From positions 6,234 to 70,233 of the forward strand of contig JBFWMB010000012.1 in NCBI GenBank assembly GCA_050251815.1: DNA of 64,000 nt, written 5' to 3'. The translations under genes were made by a program, and so were the position numbers. Shown one piece after another: positions 21,029 to 31,073 of the stretch (positions within the stretch are counted from its first letter, which is position 1; the number at the start of each line of letters is the position of its first letter). This stretch comes from Salinivirgaceae bacterium. GTDB taxonomy: Bacteria; Bacteroidota; Bacteroidia; Bacteroidales; SZUA-534. Below the pieces are notes generated by a model. That model was not told where the DNA came from. It saw nothing but the letters and a program-made list of their open reading frames with translations, and did not search any database.

Positions 21029-23665
21029 ATGAAAAAGGCTAAACAAATTTTCTCCAAACTGGTATTGCTTGTATTTTTTTGGATACTAACAGCATGTAAT
21101 AATACTTCGATTGAATATCCTTTTCAGAATCCTAAACTTCCGGTTGAGGAACGTATTGATGATTTGTTGAATCGCATGACCCTTGAAGAAAAAGCATCGC
21201 AACTTGTTTATGAGTCGCCGGCTATTGAACGCCTGGGAATTCCGGAATACAATTGGTGGAATGAGTGCCTACACGGTGTGGGGCGGGCCGGATTAGCCAC
21301 CGTTTTTCCACAGGCCATTGGAATGGCTGCCATGTTCGATAAAGAACAACTATTTGCCAATGCAGTAATTATTTCCGACGAAGCCCGGGCAAAACATCAC
21401 GAAGCTGCAAGGAACGGTCAGCGGGGCATTTATCAGGGACTTACCTTTTGGACACCCAACATCAATATTTTTCGCGATCCCCGCTGGGGACGCGGTATGG
21501 AAACTTATGGCGAAGATCCTTTTTTAACTGGTGAATTAGCGGTTGAGTTTATAAAAGGCTTGCAGGGCAACAATGAAAAGTACCTAAAGCTGGTAGCAAC
21601 CGCTAAACATTTTGTAGTTCACAGTGGGCCCGAATACAACCGTCACACCTTTGATGCGCTGGTAAATAAACGCGATTTTTTTGAGACCTATGCTCCGCAT
21701 TTCAAGCGAACCATTGACGAGGCGCAGGTAGAGTCGTTTATGTGCGCTTACAACCGGCTCGACGGCGAACCCTGTTGTGGAAGCGGATACTTGCTAAACG
21801 ACTTGTTGCGTGAGCAATGGGGCTTTAAAGGTTATGTGGTTTCGGATTGCTGGGCACTGGTCGATTTTTACAAAAACCATAAGGTGGTAGGAACTGAAGC
21901 TGAAGCAGCCGCCATGGCATTAAAATCGGGTACCGATTTAAATTGTGGCAGCGTGTATCCTTCGCTGGTTGATGCAATAAACAAAGGACTGGTCGACGAA
22001 ATGTATGTCGATGAATCGCTTCGGCGTTTGCTACATGCCCGTTTTAAACTGGGCATGTTCGATCCTGAACCGATGGTTCCCTTTGCACAGATTCCCTATG
22101 AAGTGGTGAATTCCGATAAGCACAAAGAGGTCGCTTTGCTTTCGGCTCAAAAAAGCATGGTCTTGCTTAAAAACGAACAAAACCTGCTTCCACTTTCCAA
22201 AAACTTAAAAACAATTGCCGTAATTGGGCCAAATGCGAACGATGAGGAAATGCTTTTAGGCAATTACAACGGGCATCCCGAAAAAGCGATTACTCCCTTG
22301 CAGGGGATTGTTAGTAAGCTTGGAAATACAGCGGAAGTTCTGTATGCCAAGGGTTGTGATTTGGCTGAAAACCTACCTTTCTTACAGGCCATTCCTGCTG
22401 CGAATTTTTATCTCGATGCCCATAAAACTTCCCGGGGATTAACAGCATCTTTCTATAACAATATAGATTGTTCGGGCGATGCTGTGTTTAGCGAGACGCA
22501 TCCACAGATTAATTTTAACTGGCAGGGAAACGCTCCCGTTCCGCAGGTTCCGGTCGATAGTTTTAGCATTCGCTGGAACGGCTGGCTGATTCCCGAACTC
22601 ACCGGAGAATACTACCTGGGTGGCGACGGAAAAGATGGCTACCGGATATGGATTGATGGCGAAGAGCTGGTGAATTATCAGGGATATCATCGGAACCAAA
22701 GTCGTTATAAAAGAATAAAACTGGAGAAGGGAAAACCGTATCAGTTACAGGTTGATTATACCCACCTGACCCGTTCGGCTATGATGAAACTGGTTTGGGC
22801 GCGAACCGGCATCGATTTGGAGCAGGAAGCCCTTGAACTTGCAATAAAGGCCGATGTGGTGGTTCTTTGCATGGGTTTGTCGCCACAGCTCGAAGGAGAA
22901 GAAATGGAGGTGGCTGTTGAAGGTTTTAAAGGAGGCGACCGGCTCACCTTAGGGTTGCCCGAAACGCAGACGCAGCTCATCAGGAAAATTCATGCCACCG
23001 GACGTCCCGTTGTCCTTGTTCTGTTGAATGGAAGTGCGCTGTCAGTTAACTGGGAGGCAAAACATATTCCGGCCATACTGGAAGCCTGGTATCCCGGACA
23101 AGCCGGAGGAACAGCCATTGCCGATGTGCTGTTTGGAGATTACAATCCAGCCGGACGCTTACCCGTTACTTTCTACAAAAGTGAAAACCAACTTCCCGAT
23201 TTTGAAGATTATGCCATGCAGGGACGAACCTACCGCTTTTTTAAGGGTGAACCTTTGTTCTCGTTTGGGCACGGGTTGAGTTATACGCAATTTGAATACT
23301 CCGATTTTGTACTACCCCAAAAAGCATCCTTTTCCCAACCTTTAACCCTAAGTGTAAAAGTAACCAACACCGGAAGAATTGCCGGCGACGAAGTAGTACA
23401 ACTGTATGTAAAAGATGTTGAAGCCTCAGTAACTGTTCCTTTGGTTTCGTTGCAGGGGTTACAGCGCATTCACCTGAAACCCGGGGAATCAAAAATGGTA
23501 AGTTTTATGTTGACATCGGATCAACTTGTCGTGTTCGATGAGGATGGCTGTGCAAAAAACGAAGCCGGAGTTTTTGAGATTTCGGTAGGAGGGAAAGCTC
23601 CTTATCAGAAAGGTTTTGATGCACAAACCACTCAGGTTTTAACCCAGTCGGTTTGGCTTGAATAA
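21029..23665 (+). CDS. GH3 beta-glucosidase/beta-xylosidase-type exo-glycosidase with an inserted PA14 domain
   Basis: The ORF track extends to 20819 and overlaps the previous gene. The ATG at 21029 gives MKKAKQIFSKLVLLVFFWILTACNN (lipobox). GH3 motifs are present (NIFRDPRWGRGMETYGEDP, GYVVSDCWAL). A PA14 insert is present (FSIRWNGWLIPELTGEYYLGGDGKDGYRIWIDGE). Confidence 0.9.
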   Translation: MKKAKQIFSKLVLLVFFWILTACNNTSIEYPFQNPKLPVEERIDDLLNRMTLEEKASQLVYESPAIERLGIPEYNWWNECLHGVGRAGLATVFPQAIGMAAMFDKEQLFANAVIISDEARAKHHEAARNGQRGIYQGLTFWTPNINIFRDPRWGRGMETYGEDPFLTGELAVEFIKGLQGNNEKYLKLVATAKHFVVHSGPEYNRHTFDALVNKRDFFETYAPHFKRTIDEAQVESFMCAYNRLDGEPCCGSGYLLNDLLREQWGFKGYVVSDCWALVDFYKNHKVVGTEAEAAAMALKSGTDLNCGSVYPSLVDAINKGLVDEMYVDESLRRLLHARFKLGMFDPEPMVPFAQIPYEVVNSDKHKEVALLSAQKSMVLLKNEQNLLPLSKNLKTIAVIGPNANDEEMLLGNYNGHPEKAITPLQGIVSKLGNTAEVLYAKGCDLAENLPFLQAIPAANFYLDAHKTSRGLTASFYNNIDCSGDAVFSETHPQINFNWQGNAPVPQVPVDSFSIRWNGWLIPELTGEYYLGGDGKDGYRIWIDGEELVNYQGYHRNQSRYKRIKLEKGKPYQLQVDYTHLTRSAMMKLVWARTGIDLEQEALELAIKADVVVLCMGLSPQLEGEEMEVAVEGFKGGDRLTLGLPETQTQLIRKIHATGRPVVLVLLNGSALSVNWEAKHIPAILEAWYPGQAGGTAIADVLFGDYNPAGRLPVTFYKSENQLPDFEDYAMQGRTYRFFKGEPLFSFGHGLSYTQFEYSDFVLPQKASFSQPLTLSVKVTNTGRIAGDEVVQLYVKDVEASVTVPLVSLQGLQRIHLKPGESKMVSFMLTSDQLVVFDEDGCAKNEAGVFEISVGGKAPYQKGFDAQTTQVLTQSVWLE

Positions 23666-23684
23666 ACCGAATTTGTTTTAAAAC

Positions 23685-23728
23685 AAAGGCGGCCCGGAAT
23701 TGAAATTCCAGGCCGCCTTTTCTTTCTT
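23685..23728. terminator. Bidirectional rho-independent terminator between convergent genes
   Basis: AAAGGCGGCC(CGGAAT)...(ATTCCA)GGCCGCCTTT forms a perfect 10-bp GC-rich stem with an inner extension. It is flanked by A-rich and T-rich runs and lies between the GH3 stop (23665) and the kinase stop (23738). Confidence 0.8.
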
Positions 23729-23737
23729 TTCGTATTT

Positions 23738-24706
23738 TTATTCCAGATGTTCTTTAATAAAAGCCCATCCTTTTTCAGATATTTTAGCCCCTAAGTTTTC
23801 AATAACCTTTCCTGAAAGCAAGGCTCCCATTTTGCCGCATTTGCTTAGCGACAGCTTATGAACCATTCCGTATAAAAATCCGGCGGCATAAAGGTCGCCT
23901 GCTCCGGTGGTATCAAAAGCATCGATACCAATAATGCCAACCCGGGCTTCATCGGTTCCGTGTTTGATTAAAGAACCCTGTTTACCGATCTTTACTACGG
24001 CGTATTCACAAAGTGTAGCCAGTTCGTTTAGCGATTCTTCCGGATTTTTTCCGGTAAAGGCACGGGCTTCTTCCTCGTTGGCAAAAATTATATCAACATA
24101 ATCACGAACAATCCGGTGCAAAAATTCTTTGTTTTCTTCAACTACATTGTAGCTGGCCAAATCGAGCGAAACGTTCAGTCCTTTTTCTTTGGCAATTTTA
24201 ACTGCGGTTTCAATCAGTTCATGGTTTTGAACCAAATATCCTTCGATGTGGAAGTATTGATAGCCTTCGAAAATACCCGGATTGATATCGGATGCACACA
24301 ATTCAACCGCCGCTCCCAGATAAGTAGCAAAGGTGCGTTCCGAATCGGGTGAAACCAAAGCTACCGCTTTACCGGTTGGTGTTTCGCTCAACAGAAGAAA
24401 AGGTTCAATACCGGCTTCCTCCAGATCTTCTTTAAAAAACACACCCAGCGGATCGGCGCCAACTTTACCCACAAAACCGGTTTCAATGCCCAAACGGGCC
24501 AGTCCGTGTATGGTATTTGCTGCAGAACCACCTGATGTCATTACCTGATTCAGGTGGTGGGTACTTTCAATTACCAGTTTGCTGAAATTGGCATCCACCA
24601 GTTGCATGCTTCCTTTTGGCAGGTTTAATTCGGTTAATGTACTGTCGTTGTTTAACTTAGTCATCACATCGACCAGGGCGTTGCCCATTCCTAAAATCTT
24701 ATCCAT
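23738..24706 (-). CDS. PfkB-family sugar/nucleoside kinase (adenosine-kinase-like)
   Basis: 322 aa. It has the ribokinase-fold motifs GGSAANT and DTTGAGDLYAAGFLYG. Confidence 0.8.
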   Translation of the reverse strand: MDKILGMGNALVDVMTKLNNDSTLTELNLPKGSMQLVDANFSKLVIESTHHLNQVMTSGGSAANTIHGLARLGIETGFVGKVGADPLGVFFKEDLEEAGIEPFLLLSETPTGKAVALVSPDSERTFATYLGAAVELCASDINPGIFEGYQYFHIEGYLVQNHELIETAVKIAKEKGLNVSLDLASYNVVEENKEFLHRIVRDYVDIIFANEEEARAFTGKNPEESLNELATLCEYAVVKIGKQGSLIKHGTDEARVGIIGIDAFDTTGAGDLYAAGFLYGMVHKLSLSKCGKMGALLSGKVIENLGAKISEKGWAFIKEHLE

Positions 24707-24866
24707 TGTATTGGTTCAAAAATTCAAAAAACGTTGCGAAATAACTCTAAATTTAAAGAATAAAAAAATAATATCGCAATTAATTGACAGTCACAACAGA
24801 AACTTTAAAGTTGAATGAGGTTAAAAAAATTTTGGTTAAATATTTTGCAGATTCAAAAGATGCGCT

Positions 24867-24874
24867 TATTTTTG
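24867..24874 (+). promoter_or_regulatory. Candidate Bacteroidota -7 promoter element (TAnnTTTG) for tRNA-Asn
   Basis: TATTTTTG at 24867-24874 lies 45 nt upstream of the mature tRNA 5' end. This is a motif match only. Confidence 0.3.
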
Positions 24875-24918
24875 CCACGCAATTTGAGAAACGGATTTAC
24901 TCAGGTTGTAAGCGTTCT

Positions 24919-24992
24919 TCCTCCTTAGCTCAGTTGGTTAGAGCACCTGACTGTTAATCAGGGGGTCCTTGGTTCAAGTCCAAGAGGGGGAG
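24919..24992 (+). tRNA. tRNA-Asn (anticodon GUU), 74 nt, no encoded CCA
   Basis: The cloverleaf was folded by hand. Acceptor is TCCTCCT/AGGGGGA (one G-U), D arm is GCTC-AGTTGGTTA-GAGC, anticodon arm is CCTGA-CTGTTAA-TCAGG, variable loop is GGGTC, T arm is CTTGG-TTCAAGT-CCAAG and the discriminator is G. Confidence 0.95.
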
Positions 24993-25003
24993 CTCAACAA
25001 AAT

Positions 25004-25043
25004 AAAGCCTTTGCAGATTTTTTGCAAAGGCTTTTTTATTTTA
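25004..25043 (+). terminator. Rho-independent terminator of tRNA-Asn
   Basis: AAAGCCTTTGCA-gatttt-TGCAAAGGCTTT forms a 12-bp stem, followed by TTTTATTTT. Confidence 0.85.
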
Positions 25044-25045
25044 TA

Positions 25046-25807
25046 ACTGTTAACCAGGGCCCCGAAAGCCTTCGGGGTTGGTTCAAGGGCCTACCGGAAG
25101 GGTTCGGAAAGGGAGCTCAGTAAAAACAAAGCACCTGCAAATTTATTGTGAAGGTTTTTTTATTATATGACAAGAGCAAAAGGTCAAGCCGAATGGTTGC
25201 TCTGGATATTCAACTTTTAAATGATTAATTTTGATGGGCTGTTAACCAGGGCCCCGAAAGCCTTCGGGGTTGGTTCAAGTCCCTGACGAAAGGGTTCGGA
25301 AAGGAACTCAGTAAAAACAAAGCTCCTGCAAATTTATTGTCAAGGTTTTTTATTGTATGACAAGAGCAAAAGGTTAAGCCGAATGGTTGCTCTGGTTATT
25401 CAACTTTTAAGTGATTAATTTTGTAACTGTTAATCAGGGCTCCGAAAGCTTTCGGGGTTGGTTCAAGTCCATTCCGAAAGTTTTCTGATGGGGGAGTCCA
25501 GCAAAATAATGCACTTACAAATTATTGTAGGTACCTTTTTGTTTTGTAGCCATACGAAAGGGTCAATTCGAATACCATTTCTCGAAATATTTAACTTTTT
25601 AATGATTAATTTTATAACTGTTAATCAGGGCCCCGAAAGCTTTCGGGGTTGGTTCAAGTCCATTCCGAAAGGCTTCGGAAGGGGGAGTCCAGCAAAATAA
25701 TGCGCTTGTAAATTATTATAGGTGCCTTTTTATTTTGTAGCCATACGAAAGGGTTAATTCGAATACCATTTCTCGAAATATTTAACTTTTTAATGATTAA
25801 TTTTGAA
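25046..25807 (+). repeat. Four tandem ~190-bp modules (A1 25046-25237, A2 25238-25425, B1 25426-25616, B2 25617-25807), each headed by a hairpin-expanded copy of the 3' half of tRNA-Asn
   Basis: Each unit starts (A/G)CTGTTAA(C/T)CAGG, which corresponds to tRNA positions 31-43. A 7-bp-stem hairpin follows (CCCCGAA-agcy-TTCGGGG), then TTGGTTCAAGTCC (T arm), a second similar hairpin (TTCCGAA-aggc-TTCGGAA in B2), GGGGAG (acceptor 3' strand) and a hairpin plus T-run. A1/A2 and B1/B2 are each roughly 90% identical by eye. A and B types share the head and the tail AACTTTT(T)AAxTGATTAATTTT but differ in the middle. Confidence 0.9.
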
Positions 25808-25851
25808 AGTGTTAATCAATGTCCCGAAAGCCTTTGTGCTTTTCACCAACT
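25808..25851 (+). repeat. Degenerate fifth copy (C) of the tRNA-Asn-derived head, directly upstream of the GIY-YIG ORF
   Basis: AGTGTTAATCAATGTCCCGAAAGCCTTTGTGC aligns with the unit heads (CTGTTAATCAGGGCCCCGAAAGCTTTCGGGG) and has several substitutions. Confidence 0.7.
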
Positions 25852-26151
25852 ATGGAACAAGGCTTTGTATACATATTGTTTAGTAAAAAACTATCGCGAT
25901 TTTATGTTGGTGCTACACGATTAGCCCCAACAGATAGACTATCCTGACATTTGACCAACTATTACGGGATTTTAAAATTCACTGCAAAAGCCGACGATTG
26001 GGAGCCCTTTATAAACATTGAATGTAAAAACTTTGAGCAGGCTTTAAAAATAGAAGCACACATCAAGAAGATGAAAAGTAAAAAGTACATTGAGAATCTT
26101 CAATACTATCCTGATATTATTACCAAATTGCTCGAAAAATATTCTTCGTGA
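25852..26151 (+). pseudogene. Small GIY-YIG (URI-domain) nuclease gene interrupted by an in-frame TGA at codon 32
   Basis: ATG at 25852 gives MEQGFVYILFSKKLSRFYVGATRLAPTDRLS, then TGA (25945-25947). The same frame continues HLTNYYGILKFTAKADDWEPFINIECKNFEQALKIEAHIKKMKSKKYIENL... to TGA at 26149-26151. The (F/Y)VYIL...YVG...R(L)..H......W.......E.Ex.IK pattern is that of the GIY-YIG/URI fold. The ORF track shows only the distal part (25951..26151, TTG start). Confidence 0.7.
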
Positions 26152-26154
26152 AAA

Positions 26155-26195
26155 ACTGTTAATCATTGCCCCGAAAGCTTTCGGGCTTGGTTCAA
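26155..26195 (+). repeat. Sixth copy (D) of the tRNA-Asn-derived head
   Basis: ACTGTTAATCATTGCCCCGAAAGCTTTCGGGCTTGGTTCAAGCCCA starts 4 nt after the GIY-YIG stop and ends 15 nt before the hicB stop. Confidence 0.8.
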
Positions 26196-26209
26196 GCCCA
26201 TTGTCAAAG

Positions 26210-26596
26210 CTAGATTAGAAAACTGGCCTCCGATAATTCGCGACCAATTTGTTGTACACCCTCTAAGATTCTTTTTAACTGGCTGGTCGAGGGTTTTTTA
26301 CTGCCTTTAATATATTGCGCCAACAAACTTTGATTCATACCTATACGTTCACTTAAAGCCTTTGCGTTTATTACCTTGTAAAAATCGAAAAAGCTTTCAA
26401 GGTCATAGGCAAACTGAATGTCGCTAAGGGTATATTCCTCGCTTTCAAAAGCCAAATTTACAGCCTCAACTGCATTTTTTTGAAGGGCTGTAAAACTTTC
26501 GGCCTCGGTGGCAATAAAATTATTTTCAATAGTTCCGGTAGCACTGTATCCTGTATCTTCTTTTACAACTTCTAATAGTATTTTTTTCTTTTTCAT
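26210..26596 (-). CDS. hicB: HicB-family antitoxin (HicB N-terminal fold plus C-terminal XRE-type HTH)
   Basis: 128 aa. The N-terminal part resembles a HicB-like fold (EDTGYSATG...FIATEAESF). The C-terminal HTH is LSERIGMNQSLLAQYIKGSKKPSTSQLKRI. Its start ATG overlaps the hicA stop in the sequence ATGA. Confidence 0.8.
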   Translation of the reverse strand: MKKKKILLEVVKEDTGYSATGTIENNFIATEAESFTALQKNAVEAVNLAFESEEYTLSDIQFAYDLESFFDFYKVINAKALSERIGMNQSLLAQYIKGSKKPSTSQLKRILEGVQQIGRELSEASFLI

Positions 26597-26790
26597 CGCT
26601 TGTTTGTTTTAATATCAGCTTGCTTTAATATTGCCTTTAGCAATCCTTTTTTAACCTCCTTACCTGCATGGTAGGGTACTGTTAACTGTAGATCCTTTTC
26701 GGGATGTTGCATAATAACATGACTTCCTTTTTGCCGGACTACAACCCAACCATTGTTTTTTAATAGCTTAAAAAGGTCGTTGTATTTTAT
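26593..26790 (-). CDS. hicA: HicA-family mRNA-interferase toxin gene lacking a canonical start codon (ATA at the expected Met position)
   Basis: Not in the ORF track. The minus-strand translation is (I)KYNDLFKLLKNNGWVVVRQKGSHVIMQHPEKDLQLTVPYHAGKEVKKGLLKAILKQADIKTNKR, with stop TGA at 26593-26595. The GW...RQKGSH...H....L.VP.H..KE...G motif is classic HicA. The in-frame upstream codons are TAA-TAT-ATT-TAT-TAC-CTT-TGC-ACC-ATA, so no ATG, GTG or TTG is available. Confidence 0.75.
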   Translation of the reverse strand: MKYNDLFKLLKNNGWVVVRQKGSHVIMQHPEKDLQLTVPYHAGKEVKKGLLKAILKQADIKTNKR

Positions 26791-26888
26791 GGTGCAAAGG
26801 TAATAAATATATTACTTTTTCAAACAAATGGAATTTTTGTGTGTTATTGAGTGAATAACCAAGGTATTGAAAAGGTACGCCTAATGAG

Positions 26889-26914
26889 GCTGTTAATCTG
26901 GTTCTCAAACGGGC
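26889..26914 (+). repeat. Seventh, hairpin-less copy (E) of the tRNA-Asn anticodon-loop/T-arm segment
   Basis: GCTGTTAATCTGGTTCTCAAACGGGC corresponds to CTGTTAATC joined directly to a TGGTTC..CAA T-arm-like segment. It lies 99 nt upstream of the hicA start position. Confidence 0.55.
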
Positions 26915-26922
26915 ATTAATAA

Positions 26923-27131
26923 AAACCCGATCTTTTTTAAAAAGATCGGGACTTTGTAAAAAAAGATCGGGTTCTTATAAAATAAAGTCGTGATCTTGTA
27001 AAAAAAGATCGTGACCTTGTAAAATAAAGTCCCGACTTTGTAAAAAATAAACGAGACCTTTTTGCAAAAAGATCGGGACTTGTTTGAAAAAAGATCCCGA
27101 CCTTTTCGAAGAAAGATCGGGACTTTGTTGG
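26923..27131 (+). repeat. Block of one inverted plus nine direct, degenerate 21-22-bp repeats (consensus approx AAAGATCGGGACTTTGTAAAAA); iteron-like and GATC-rich
   Basis: The G of the AGATC/AGTC/ACGAG cores falls at 26944, 26965, 26987, 27007, 27029, 27053, 27071, 27093 and 27115. An inverted copy CCCGATCTTTTT at 26926-26937 forms a palindrome with the first direct copy. A-tracts are phased at about 21 bp. I count 8 GATC sites in about 210 bp. Confidence 0.85.
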
Positions 27132-27431
27132 CCTACGAACCCGTCTTTGATTATTACAGGTAACCTATCCTTAGGCCTGAATTCTAATTGTGTAACGAAC
27201 AGGCATTACGGGTTGTATTTACCAGGCTTTAGCTACTTCTTGTAAAAATGCCTCCACGCCAAGGAACAGGAACCAATACAACCCGGAAATCAATCCAGCA
27301 CTGCTGGAGCTTATTCAAAGTAAAAATCCCAACTTTTAGGGATTGCCGCCATTTTTCTTCGCTGCTACTTTTGACCCGAAGTTTATTCAAATAATAATTC
27401 GAGGGATTTAGTTGGAGAAGAAAAAAGCATC

Positions 27432-29819
27432 ATGATACAAAAAGCCATACTCATAAGTTCATTCATCTGCTATTCAATCATCAGTTTTGGTCAGCAAGCT
27501 GTTGGTACTATTGCGGGAACAGTTAAAGACGCGAAAGGAACTGCTATTCCCTTTAGTAGCATTGCTATTCTGGGTACAAACCAGGGAACAATTTCTGACG
27601 AACAGGGGCATTTCTCACTAAACACTCCTGTTATTGGATCGCAAACCTTGGTTGTGAGTAGTTTGGGATACGAACCCCGCCATATTCCCCTTAGCCTGGG
27701 AAAAGAAAAACAGCTTAAACTCGATGTTTTGCTTGAGTCCGGTAGCATTGCTATAAACGAAGTGGTGGTTTCTGAAAAAAGCGAAACCACCCGGCGTAAA
27801 GAATTGCCTTTTTCGATAACAGCCATCGATGCCAAACCTTTACAGGCAAAAAATATGGATATAAATCAGGTGCTAAATACCACAACGGGAATCCGCATTC
27901 GTGAGGAGGGCGGACTGGGCTCCAATTTTAGTTTTTCGTTGAATGGCTTTACCGGAAATCAGGTAAAGTTTTTTTTGGATGGCGTTCCCATGGATAATTT
28001 TGGCAGTTCGCTTACTTTAAATAATATTCCGGTCAATTTAATCTCAAGCATTGAAGTTTATAAGGGTGTGGTTCCCATACATCTGGGTTCCGATGCCCTG
28101 GGCGGTGCGGTAAATGTAATTACCAATAACAAGATTAGTAACTATGTGGATGCTTCTTATGCCTACGGTTCTTTTAACACCCACCGGCTGGCTTTAATCA
28201 GTCGCTATACCCATGCTAAAACGGGTCTGGTGGTAAAAGCCAATGCCTTTTATAATTATTCCGATAACGATTATAAAATGTTTATTCCCGTATCGGATAT
28301 CTCGAATGGCGGAAAATACGGGGAACCCGAATGGATACGCAGGTTTCACGATGCTTATGAGTCGCAGACTGTCCAGCTTGAAATTGGGGTGATGGATAAA
28401 AAACTGGCCGACCGCCTCTTTTTTGGAATAATTACCTCAAAAAACTATAAGGAGCTGCAAACCGGGCACAACATGAATATTGTAATTGGGGAAGCTTTTG
28501 ATGAAGACCAGGTAATTATTCCCACCTTACACTATTCAAAAAACGATTTGTTTATTCCGGGATTATCGGTAAACCTGTACGCCAATTACAATTTCAGGCA
28601 GGCCCTGAGTGCCGATACCAGCAGCCGAAAATACGACTGGTACCAAAACTATGAGGTGAAAGGGATTAATACCACCAGTGGTGAAATAGCCTGGAACAAA
28701 ACCTTGTTTAGCTATAACGATAACTCGGCCCTGGTTTCGGCAAACCTGACTTACACCATAAACAGCAACCACAGCCTGTCGTTAAATAATACCTACAGCA
28801 GTTTTCGCCGGAAGGGTGAAGATCCCATCAGTTTATCGGTAGTGCCCTTCAGTAAACCCAATGTTTTAAATAAGAACATTACCGGCTTTTCGTACAGTAT
28901 CAGTTTGCTGGGAGGTAAATTAAAAACGGTTGTTTTTACCAAGCTGTTTGTTATGGAATCGACCGGATTCGAAGGCGACCGCTACAGTAAGTCGGACACC
29001 GCTTTAACCAAAATAAAGGCCGCTTACAACAAGTCATCATTAGGGATAGCTTCAACCTATTACCTTACCCCGGAAACCCAGCTTAAGCTGAGCTATGAGA
29101 ATACCTACCGCTTGCCCGAAGCTCGCGAAATGTTTGGAAACGGTTTGACGTTGCTGAGTAACCTGAACATTCAACCCGAGGAAAGCAAAAACTTTAATGT
29201 GGGGATATTAAGCAACCACACCTTTAACAGGCATCGGCTGATGGCAGAACTGGAATACTTGTATCGCCTGCCCGAAAATATGATTCGCTATATGGCTGAA
29301 GGAAACGACGGATTTTATGAGAACCTGGTCTCGGTTAAAGGATACAGCATCGAAGGAGGTATTAAATACAATTACAATAACAAATTAAACCTGGAGTTGA
29401 ACGGAACCTACCAAAAAATGGTGTACAACAATAAAACAACACCAACAGGCGGCGTCAATTACCTGTATGAGCAACAATTAGCCAACATTCCTTTTCTTTT
29501 TGGTTCGTTAAATATGGGTTACCAATGGGCCAATGTTTTAGGTGATGGCAATACCTTGGCGGCGAATTGGGCAACGCTGTTTGTCGAGTCGTTTTATTTA
29601 AAGTCGCCTTCTAACGGGAACCCAACCGGAAAGAACGATATCCCCCGACAAATTTCCAATTCGGCGAATGTGTCCTACAGTTTTAAAAACGGGCAATACA
29701 CCATTTCCCTGGCTTGTACCAACTTGTCCGATAAACCGCTTTACGATAACTGGAAACTGCCAAAACCAGGCCGTGCCTTTAATGTAAAGCTTCGCTATTA
29801 TATTTTTAGTAACCAATAA
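27432..29819 (+). CDS. TonB-dependent receptor (XusA-like siderophore-type)
   Basis: 795 aa. It has a signal peptide, a CarboxypepD_reg-like domain (GTVKDAKGTAIPFSSIAILGTNQGTISDEQGHFSL), a plug and a 22-strand-type barrel with a terminal aromatic region. A DUF4374-type lipoprotein gene and a PepSY gene follow. Confidence 0.9.
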   Translation: MIQKAILISSFICYSIISFGQQAVGTIAGTVKDAKGTAIPFSSIAILGTNQGTISDEQGHFSLNTPVIGSQTLVVSSLGYEPRHIPLSLGKEKQLKLDVLLESGSIAINEVVVSEKSETTRRKELPFSITAIDAKPLQAKNMDINQVLNTTTGIRIREEGGLGSNFSFSLNGFTGNQVKFFLDGVPMDNFGSSLTLNNIPVNLISSIEVYKGVVPIHLGSDALGGAVNVITNNKISNYVDASYAYGSFNTHRLALISRYTHAKTGLVVKANAFYNYSDNDYKMFIPVSDISNGGKYGEPEWIRRFHDAYESQTVQLEIGVMDKKLADRLFFGIITSKNYKELQTGHNMNIVIGEAFDEDQVIIPTLHYSKNDLFIPGLSVNLYANYNFRQALSADTSSRKYDWYQNYEVKGINTTSGEIAWNKTLFSYNDNSALVSANLTYTINSNHSLSLNNTYSSFRRKGEDPISLSVVPFSKPNVLNKNITGFSYSISLLGGKLKTVVFTKLFVMESTGFEGDRYSKSDTALTKIKAAYNKSSLGIASTYYLTPETQLKLSYENTYRLPEAREMFGNGLTLLSNLNIQPEESKNFNVGILSNHTFNRHRLMAELEYLYRLPENMIRYMAEGNDGFYENLVSVKGYSIEGGIKYNYNNKLNLELNGTYQKMVYNNKTTPTGGVNYLYEQQLANIPFLFGSLNMGYQWANVLGDGNTLAANWATLFVESFYLKSPSNGNPTGKNDIPRQISNSANVSYSFKNGQYTISLACTNLSDKPLYDNWKLPKPGRAFNVKLRYYIFSNQ

Positions 29820-29831
29820 ACAATACATACG

Positions 29832-31073
29832 ATGAAACCAATTTTGAATACAATTAAACTAACGACTGTGGCTGTAGTAATCGGTACATTTGCTTCCTGC
29901 GAAGAAAGCGAACCCACAACAGATACTACCACAGCCAACTATGTTATGTCATTACGTACTACCGGAGCCAACGACGAAAGCTCCGATTACTTGTTAACTG
30001 TTGATGATTTAATGACCGGCGAAATTTCGGCCCAGGGAACAGGCACCGAACTGGTTGGTTGGAACTATACCGGCAAATTTGGAGGAACATTTTTTTCATT
30101 CGGTTACGATTTGAACGAGTGCATCGCCTATGAGATTTCAAATAACACTTTACAGGAGAAAGGAAAGTTTGTTTTCGATCGTTTCGATGTGATGAATCCC
30201 ATCGACAACAATACCTTTATGGCAATTGGAGCGCCCTGGGGAGGTGGTTCGTACGATTGTCAACTTCAGGTGGTCGATATTAACGAGGTAGCTATTGCCA
30301 AAACCGTATTGCATCCAATTTACGTGTCTTTCGACCCCAACAATCCCGAGGTGCAACTGAATGCCTGGCCTACCCATTCTTATCTAGATGGCGACAAATT
30401 CTATGTGGCATTTTATACCCTGAATGGTGTATCGTGGGAAACACCCAATACCGACACGGCTTACGTAAGCGTGTTCTCGTATCCTGAACTGGAATACATT
30501 AAAACAATAAAAGATACCCGTACCGGACCCATAGGATATTACGGAGCCCAACCAGCTATTTTGACGGATGAGGCCGGCGATCATTATACCTTATCGTCGG
30601 GGGCTTACTCGGCCGGATTTACCCAGGTTACCAAAGGCTCAGGCATCTTAAAAATTGCATCGGGTAGCGATGAGTTCGATGCCAATTATTTTTTCGATGT
30701 GGAAGCTACCGGTTACCGGGTTACCTCGGCTACGTATGTGGGCAATGGCCTGGCTGTAGCCAATGTAATCTCCAAATTGCTCGACGAAACAGCGGCTTTG
30801 CAAAGCCAATGGGCTTTGTTTTCAGAAGTAACCCCTTTGCTAAACACGGCAATTATCGATTTATATAACAAAACCCTTACGCTTGTCGATGAAGTACCCT
30901 TGCACGGGGGACAATACCAGACTCCTTTTTTGGTGGAAGATGGTTTGGTATATATTTCGGTTAATGATGGAAGGGAAACCTATGTTTACCAGGTTGATGC
31001 CGTAAATAAAATAGCTGTTAAAGGGGCTAAGCTTATTGGTAATCAGTTTCAGGGACTTTATTCAGCAAAATAA
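29832..31073 (+). CDS. DUF4374-like surface lipoprotein (XusB-like)
   Basis: 413 aa with lipobox FASCEE. Composition looks beta-propeller-like. It sits 12 nt after the TonB-dependent receptor, which is the gene order of Bacteroides xusABC. Confidence 0.6.
   Translation: MKPILNTIKLTTVAVVIGTFASCEESEPTTDTTTANYVMSLRTTGANDESSDYLLTVDDLMTGEISAQGTGTELVGWNYTGKFGGTFFSFGYDLNECIAYEISNNTLQEKGKFVFDRFDVMNPIDNNTFMAIGAPWGGGSYDCQLQVVDINEVAIAKTVLHPIYVSFDPNNPEVQLNAWPTHSYLDGDKFYVAFYTLNGVSWETPNTDTAYVSVFSYPELEYIKTIKDTRTGPIGYYGAQPAILTDEAGDHYTLSSGAYSAGFTQVTKGSGILKIASGSDEFDANYFFDVEATGYRVTSATYVGNGLAVANVISKLLDETAALQSQWALFSEVTPLLNTAIIDLYNKTLTLVDEVPLHGGQYQTPFLVEDGLVYISVNDGRETYVYQVDAVNKIAVKGAKLIGNQFQGLYSAK

Follow-up and report, generated by a model that had tools for sequence, protein, structure and literature searches.

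The window analysed here, 64,000 nucleotides (nt) of contig JBFWMB010000012.1 from a Salinivirgaceae bacterium, carries a tandem array of four units of about 190 bp directly after the terminator of an intact tRNA-Asn gene, each unit being a hairpin-bearing copy of the 3' half of that tRNA. Our results indicate that the units are probably non-autonomous or decayed, gene-less derivatives of a selfish element of Bacteroidota that combines a nuclease with a hairpin and nests in tRNA loci by a mechanism that we infer. The full element consists of a gene for a single-domain GIY-YIG protein of ~95 amino acids (aa) beside a tRNA gene, together with a partial duplicate of the tRNA transcription unit. 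Nuclease gene, hairpin and partially duplicated tRNA are found together at three tRNA species and in three orders, with tandem amplification and with gain and loss between relatives. The finding is not ordinary decay; it is best placed among nuclease-hairpin selfish elements, as an apparently undescribed form that nests in tRNA loci. The window shows this form at a degenerate stage, in which the nuclease gene is dead and modules without a gene have been amplified.

The source of the copies is an intact tRNA-Asn(GTT) gene on the plus strand (24919-24993; ARAGORN, and Rfam tRNA at 69 bits), the 3' part of which is copied in every unit. It is preceded by a promoter of the Bacteroidota type (24844-24874, plus strand, TTTG-N19-TATTTTTG), which in a motif scan was the single site within 24700-26300 with -33 and -7 elements together, and is followed by an intrinsic terminator (25004-25044, plus strand; 14-bp stem at 25004-25034 and a T-run) that provides the template for the unit stems. 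An earlier note on this DNA had described four ~190-bp tandem units derived from tRNA-Asn after this terminator, and they are borne out by Tandem Repeats Finder (4.2 copies of period 191 over 25038-25831), by the positions of CTGTTAA (25047, 25239, 25427 and 25618), and by alignment to the tRNA 3' half and terminator, in which the anticodon loop, 3' anticodon stem, T arm, acceptor 3' strand and terminator are all reproduced. A 28-nt core, CCCCGAAAGCYTTCGGGGTTGGTTCAAG, occurs five times, with none expected from 100 shuffles.

The units, all on the plus strand, fall into two subtypes, A1 and A2 being 90.5% identical, B1 and B2 93.2%, and A to B 71-75%. Unit A1 (25046-25238) comprises a head (25046-25118) with hairpin 1 at 25060-25077 and hairpin 2 at 25092-25109, a weak terminator copy at ~25131-25162, and a tail to 25238; A2 (25239-25426) has its hairpins at 25252-25269 and 25284-25301. 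In B1 (25427-25617), hairpin 1 (25440-25457) contains one U-G pair, hairpin 2 (25472-25489) is broken, and the terminator copy lies at 25511-25541, whereas B2 (25618-25807) has a perfect palindrome as hairpin 1 (25631-25648), hairpin 2 at 25663-25680, and a terminator copy at 25702-25725 with a T-run. Two hairpin insertions per unit had been claimed; two 18-nt hairpins are indeed present, the first at the variable loop and the second after the T stem, but they replace 3-5 nt rather than being pure insertions, and the second forms a good stem in B2, roughly so in A1 and A2, but no intact stem in four of the seven copies, namely B1 and the three of a related genome, L001. Similarly, the terminator-like stem ascribed to every unit is evident in the B units (fold z-scores of -4.6 and -2.8) but weak in the A units (-0.6 and -1.6). 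The compensatory changes noted between B1 and B2 are real, but they amount to one double change and not to several independent events, since the same two terminator variants are present in the second genome.

The TGATTAA at the end of each tail can, as had been noticed, pair with TTAATCA of the next head (25218-25250, 25408-25438 and 25599-25629; 7 bp with an 11-nt loop). This pairing is invariant in all copies of the array and absent from the gene-bearing loci described below.

Contrary to the earlier note, the array does not end at 25807. A fifth head, degenerate and truncated (GTGTTAATCAATG-TCCCGAAAGCC...), lies at 25808-25840 (plus strand) and runs into a GIY-YIG nuclease pseudogene (25852-26151, plus strand) of 99 codons, identified from its translation, Pfam and a family hidden Markov model (HMM), which is full-length except for one in-frame TGA at 25945-25947. 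The pseudogene matches Pfam PF01541 (E 2.7e-10) and, end to end, the family HMM (E 1.5e-39), and is regarded as young. It is followed by a sixth head (26156-26203, plus strand) with an anticodon-loop copy, a hairpin at 26169-26186 and a T-arm copy, which abuts hicB/hicA on the minus strand; the array is limited by tRNA-Asn on one side and by hicBA on the other. The sixth head, the only copy found in the closest relatives (L017, L018 and L020), is the oldest copy. At the site of the TGA, ahead of a conserved His codon, relatives encode N, R, K, H, F or Y; the stop may reflect inactivation very recently, an error of sequencing, or recoding.

The pseudogene belongs to a sizeable family, with 189 word-indexed matches and, by exhaustive search, 1089 representative clusters at E<=1e-10. 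Its members are ~95 aa long (94-103 aa) and have PF01541 as their only domain, which spans nearly the whole protein, the sequence ending ~15 residues past the catalytic domain. The nuclease protein has no match in NCBIfam, and its best relatives in the PDB are UPF0213 proteins (E 8.7e-7), with SLX1 also found. Many database gene calls for the family are 120-135 aa long, with 25-40 extra N-terminal residues before the domain, probably owing to starts mis-called upstream through the terminator or tRNA copy.

Eleven gene-bearing loci were available for comparison, nine from the protein search and two (L002 and L003) from DNA pattern scans; these scans retrieved, besides L001, a related Salinivirgaceae genome with B-type units at the orthologous pfkB-tRNA-Asn locus, three loci with hairpin-bearing tRNA-Asn halves. 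At all 11 loci a tRNA gene (Asn, Met or Arg) is found at a distance of 0-190 nt from the nuclease gene, and at all 11 there are partial or whole extra tRNA copies in which a palindrome, YCCCGAWAGCTWTCGGGR, replaces 3-5 nt; at least one 18-nt hairpin is present within ~250 nt of the nuclease gene at each of them and in the window. Together with the head-bearing GIY-YIG gene at the array end, this tie to tRNA genes supports a suggestion made before any gene was recognised, i.e. that the units are derivatives, lacking an open reading frame (ORF), of a tRNA-targeting mobile element.

One intact tRNA is retained beside the element, and the duplicate usually consists of the tRNA 3' half and terminator, placed after the gene, or sometimes of the promoter and tRNA 5' part, placed before it. 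Thus, in the Asn 3' type (L002, L003, L005, L008 and L011) the order is tRNA, terminator, gene, head and the same terminator, the stop codon of the gene usually lying within the copied anticodon arm (GAC TGT TAA in L003 and L011; TGT TAA in L008). The Met 3' type (L007 and L016) has the same order, with the hairpin in place of ATAAT of the anticodon loop. The 5' type is a mirror image (L006 at tRNA-Met, L013 at tRNA-Asn), in which a copy of the promoter and tRNA 5' part, with a D-loop hairpin, precedes the gene, and the intact promoter and tRNA follow; at L013 a hairpin-marked tRNA piece is present on both flanks of the gene. Full-length copies are found at L015 (an extra tRNA-Arg with a hairpin in the anticodon arm) and at L003 (an additional tRNA-Asn with a hairpin in the variable loop), and a lone head without a gene at L004. 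Heads with two hairpins, of which the first occupies the variable loop like that of the window units, are present at L011, where the second follows directly after the T stem (the position in the window), and at L003, where it is in the T loop. Tandem arrays of gene, head and terminator have formed in four lineages (L002, L005, L007 and L011/L012). The copies match their own local tRNA and their own terminator or promoter, with no common consensus, which implies that they were made or homogenised in place. Eight loci have the gene downstream of the tRNA, and in six of them its start codon is 0-22 nt past the terminator T-run, leaving little room for a separate promoter.

Two of these loci carry further tRNA-like sequences. 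At L003 (7005-7090) the full-length copy, with its variable-loop palindrome and a decayed T arm, is called by ARAGORN as an 86-nt "tRNA-Asn", illustrating how annotation can mistake hairpin-marked full-length copies for tRNA genes that have a long variable arm. At L007 (2640-2890) the intact tRNA-Met is preceded by four more decayed pieces of tRNA-Met, with palindromes in the acceptor/D region and in the anticodon loop; to judge from its sequence, this locus is one that has been hit repeatedly.

Over the 177 kb made up by the window and the loci, the palindrome is found only in tRNA copies, and the same palindrome is present in tRNA copies of Bacteroidales, Flavobacteriales and Chitinophagales. 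Most copies of YCCCGAWAGCTWTCGGGR are perfect 18-nt palindromes through their centre, a form better suited to a site in DNA than to an RNA stem-loop, and the two outer pairs covary across loci (C-G to T-A), giving CCCC/GGGG, TCCC/GGGA, CTCC/GGAG and TTCC/GGAA. It substitutes for nucleotides within or bordering a tRNA loop, typically five (range 3-5): GGTCC in the variable loop, AGTCC or GTCCT in the T loop, ATAAT or GTTTC in the anticodon arm, AGTT in the D loop, and AGA or AGAGG after the T stem. A rule by which hairpins occur only in loops was considered and found too strict, with several replacements also taking one or more stem bases and with hairpin 2 of the window and of L011 located at the T-stem/acceptor junction. 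The tRNA homology starts upstream of hairpin 1, by 12-18 nt, at every 3'-type locus, both where that hairpin occupies the variable loop (Asn) and where it occupies the anticodon loop (Met), so that the duplication boundary tracks the hairpin and not a fixed tRNA position.

These features suggest how the element may work. If the Ssn nuclease and its NTS hairpin serve as a guide, the palindrome would be the cognate DNA hairpin of the nuclease, bound when single-stranded and cut some bases to the 5' side, and it is probably not an RNA module. The duplicated tRNA signals would let a promoter-less gene use the tRNA promoter by read-through and be terminated. Direct repeats of ~100 bp with adjacent nuclease nicks would be expected to promote unequal recombination, and so tandem expansion, contraction and gene loss; nicks beside the repeats may also drive spread via the conserved flanks of tRNA genes. 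In the window, the four units would represent amplification of one 191-bp segment (head, terminator copy and ~70 nt of neighbouring DNA) and not four insertions: the nuclease gene appears to have died recently, through one stop codon, and the 191-bp segment upstream of it to have been amplified into two subtypes, with the terminator-like stems of the units being inherited copies of the tRNA terminator.

Comparison of the window with relatives at the same pfkB-tRNA-Asn locus reveals alleles in several states. The empty allele (L026-30) has only the tRNA and its terminator, with PfkB 76% identical; L017, L018 and L020 have head 6 alone (pfkB 93% identical at the nucleotide level); L001 has 2.6 B units (pfkB 92% identical at the nucleotide level); and the window has the fullest allele, with four units, the pseudogene and head 6. 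Within the 64-kb window head copies are confined to the tRNA-Asn locus, and the genome scan found them at a single locus in the L001 genome. This confinement does not fit a generic miniature inverted-repeat transposable element (MITE) or other dispersed repeat, which would have terminal inverted repeats and copies scattered at non-tRNA loci. B1 differs from the first unit of L001 at two of 189 positions (98.9% identity), whereas the flanks are 92-94% identical (P about 1e-4), a pattern that fits recent spread or conversion of the units, as judged from sequence comparison. The second unit of L001 combines a B2-type terminator with a B1-type second hairpin, from which it follows that units recombine.

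Public contigs of up to 67 kb, L019 at its end and L023 and L025 at their starts, stop inside tRNA-Asn, exactly at CCTGACTGT or TTGGTTCAAG. It is here that the similarity to the heads sets in, indicating repeat-induced assembly breaks. At L028 (1004-1264) a fragment of an IS110 transposase lies at the otherwise empty tRNA-Asn site.

Among known systems, the nearest is the Ssn nuclease with its NTS/SRM hairpins. Ssn is a single-domain GIY-YIG nuclease of ~94 aa without a DNA-binding domain, whose target, the NTS hairpin repeat (core TTCCCGCG..CGCGGGAA), is bound solely when the DNA is single-stranded, with cleavage a few nt to the 5' side; Ssn genes typically have hairpins of their own on either side, an arrangement that the authors liken to insertion sequences and to REP/RAYT (Chenal et al. 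2025, PMC11893778). The family described here shares the protein size, the single-domain architecture and a short hairpin of its own beside the gene, and the hairpin cores are similar, TTCCCGCG..CGCGGGAA in NTS and TCCCGA..TCGGGA here, often after TCA or CA. The 12-18-nt offset between the start of tRNA homology and hairpin 1 is the sole, indirect, hint of an Ssn-like cleavage site, and no Ssn structure was found in the PDB. The systems differ in that the hairpins here replace nucleotides inside duplicated tRNA pieces, whereas PMC11893778 mentions neither tRNA (0 occurrences) nor Bacteroidota.

Other mobile elements share some of these features. T4 SegB, a free-standing GIY-YIG homing endonuclease of the T4 tRNA cluster, resembles the present family in having its gene by tRNA genes (PMC2330249), as a selfish passenger with presence/absence polymorphism. 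The Seg/Tev enzymes, however, have two domains and ~200+ aa and cut a double-stranded target that lacks the gene, whereas here there is a catalytic domain alone, the intact tRNA target stands unchanged beside the gene, and there is a hairpin-marked duplicate, which the Seg/Tev systems lack. A two-domain GIY-YIG homing endonuclease or a group I intron was rejected as an identification, there being no C-terminal DNA-binding domain and no match to an intron model. The REP/RAYT and IS200/IS605 systems likewise combine a small nuclease gene with short palindromic hairpins recognised as single strands, and have gene-less hairpin copies; their nucleases, however, have the HUH/Y1 fold and not the GIY-YIG fold, their copies are dispersed and extragenic and are not nested in tRNA duplicates, and they move by transposition, which for the present element is no more than a possibility. 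Mobile ORFs at atp6 and cox in fungal mitochondria bring with them a replacement 3' end of the host gene, leaving the displaced or duplicated gene end beyond the endonuclease ORF, and the host gene remains functional after the insertion. These cases differ in having protein-coding organelle targets, no palindrome marking and larger enzymes of the LAGLIDADG or GIY-YIG type.

Several observations weigh against the derivation of the units from a nuclease-hairpin element. Cleavage, transcription and mobility are predictions made from the DNA sequence. Local alignment of the unit tails with the nuclease gene gave scores no better than shuffles, and in a search of the six-frame translation with the family HMM the pseudogene was the sole match, with none in the unit tails; with no coding remnant of the nuclease in the tails, an origin of the units by gene loss is deduced from their architecture. 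The high conservation of the B units could reflect selection on a transcript, and their terminator stems remain paired despite strong divergence from the tRNA terminator. The protein is at most a candidate member of the Ssn family (cd10448), and the published SRM motif, HGTCWYN(0-2)YYVSBRHN(0-5)WNVSBRGN(0-2)RNCYNB, has no match on either strand of the 177 kb. NTS repeats are dispersed in hundreds, whereas here the hairpins are confined to copies of tRNA genes: none was found outside tRNA copies in the 64-kb window and the loci, and the genome scan gave one locus in one genome, no whole-genome scan with a looser motif having been made. Finally, hairpin type correlates only loosely with protein clade.

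The alternative that best survives, although we regard it as unlikely and as weaker than a nuclease element, is that each unit specifies a tRNA-derived structured small RNA, with a tail-end promoter of its own (TAATTTTG), two hairpin modules and its own terminator. Consistent with this, a -7-like box, TAATTTTG, lies ~6 nt before three heads (25226, 25416 and 25798), the B units fold better than shuffles and outdo the flanking DNA in conservation, and the B terminator stem is preserved by one double and several single compensatory changes. However, the motif scan found no -33 element at any TAATTTTG box, a permissive Rfam search of 23500-28500 matched the tRNA alone, the A units fold no better than shuffles, and the unstructured tail is conserved as much as the head. 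A test for covariation, run on seven units that are few and closely related, gave a value of 0.139 compared with 0.129 for shuffles, a level reached by 187 of 500 shuffles and so not significant. With hairpin 2 broken in four of the seven copies, and palindromes that suit a DNA site, the structured RNA family that the note had envisaged is not supported; moreover, the same hairpins occur 5', 3' or on both sides of the nuclease gene at three tRNAs, which would be unexpected for one RNA family. A role as a decoy of the anticodon loop, also raised at that time, is not in keeping with loop copies that are mutated (CTGATAA in L005, TTGTTAA in L008) or replaced by a hairpin (tRNA-Met in L007 and L016).

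Plain tandem duplication and decay of the tRNA 3' region, with no link to a nuclease and with hairpins arising as chance palindromic insertions, is improbable. It would account for the simple head-to-tail geometry, for mosaic copies indicating unequal recombination, and for a unit tail that has no homologue (blastn of the tails found nothing outside the arrays) or detectable function. It is largely refuted by the association across the phylum: the same palindrome marks tRNA copies in all three orders, the same gene family accompanies it in 11 of 12 occupied loci (the exception being L004), and the pattern is expected 0 times by chance, as estimated from shuffles. More improbable still are attachment-site (att) scars from repeated integration and excision of integrase-type islands or phages, for which tRNA-Asn is a common site, with the copies beginning in the anticodon stem-loop (the classical crossover location), and a VapE/HTH_17 island adjoining the same tRNA at L013, but for which there is no integrase among the ORFs of 22000-30000, no palindrome-free copy, no occurrence in the scan of viral contigs and no phage or plasmid homologue of the gene, and which would leave unexplained copies that run through the terminator or, elsewhere, include the promoter and 5' half, neither of which integrases duplicate.

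The earlier note had likewise held that these are not plain att scars, and the lack of an integrase near the array and the extent of the copies uphold it. The duplications made by integrases at tRNA genes do resemble the present ones in being direct repeats of the tRNA 3' part, from the anticodon arm, downstream of an intact tRNA; they differ in that here the repeats, with no integrase, reach the terminator, or the promoter and 5' half, and carry inserted palindromes. Neither the head pattern nor a homologue of the nuclease was found in viral contigs, phage records or plasmids.

Returning to the nuclease-hairpin element, the loci may represent a new class of mobile element, an idea that we offer as a possibility and not as an expectation. 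In such a class, a minimal GIY-YIG single-strand nuclease would recognise the 18-nt palindrome and cut ~15 nt upstream, the cut-to-cut segment would be the transferable unit, nesting in tRNA units folded as cloverleaf single-stranded DNA and duplicating part of them, and the ORF-less 190-bp units of the window would be non-autonomous copies whose mobilisation or amplification occurs in trans.

Irrespective of how far this extends, the 1089 clusters and the tie to tRNA genes at all 11 sampled loci imply that the phenomenon is probably common in Bacteroidota, although the family is annotated merely as "GIY-YIG nuclease family protein". The nesting of a nuclease-hairpin element in tRNA genes is apparently unreported; the architecture had been thought undescribed, and full-text literature searches retrieved no paper on tRNA-linked GIY-YIG hairpin elements. 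If the proposed link to Ssn is correct, it would provide a second natural context, and possibly a selfish-element role, for single-strand nucleases of the Ssn type, as well as new nuclease/hairpin pairs of biotechnological interest. On the same condition, the element would also explain recurrent pseudo-tRNA calls, such as that by ARAGORN at L003, and assembly breaks at tRNA genes, as in L019, L023 and L025, and would imply that a promoter-less gene can parasitise tRNA promoters and terminators without destroying the tRNA.

The surroundings of the tRNA-Asn loci contain some other features. In the window, between hicA and a gene for a TonB-dependent receptor (26939-27128), there are about nine copies, some inverted, of a 21-22-bp unit, AAAAAGATCGGGACTTTGTAA, which contains GATCGGGAC / GTCCCGA, with a faint likeness to half of the palindrome, and for which Rfam gives only noise matches. 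The minus-strand pair directly after head 6 (26210-26712) encodes HicB-like (128 aa, with a helix-turn-helix, HTH, motif) and HicA-like proteins. Its hicA ORF has 39 aa, matching profile positions 25-58 of 58, compared with 65 aa for HicA of L017, suggesting that the window hicA may be truncated or frameshifted. Neighbours of the same tRNA-Asn loci elsewhere include the VapE/HTH_17 island at L013 (2566-3285) and cas1-cas2 at L008 (5004-6312).

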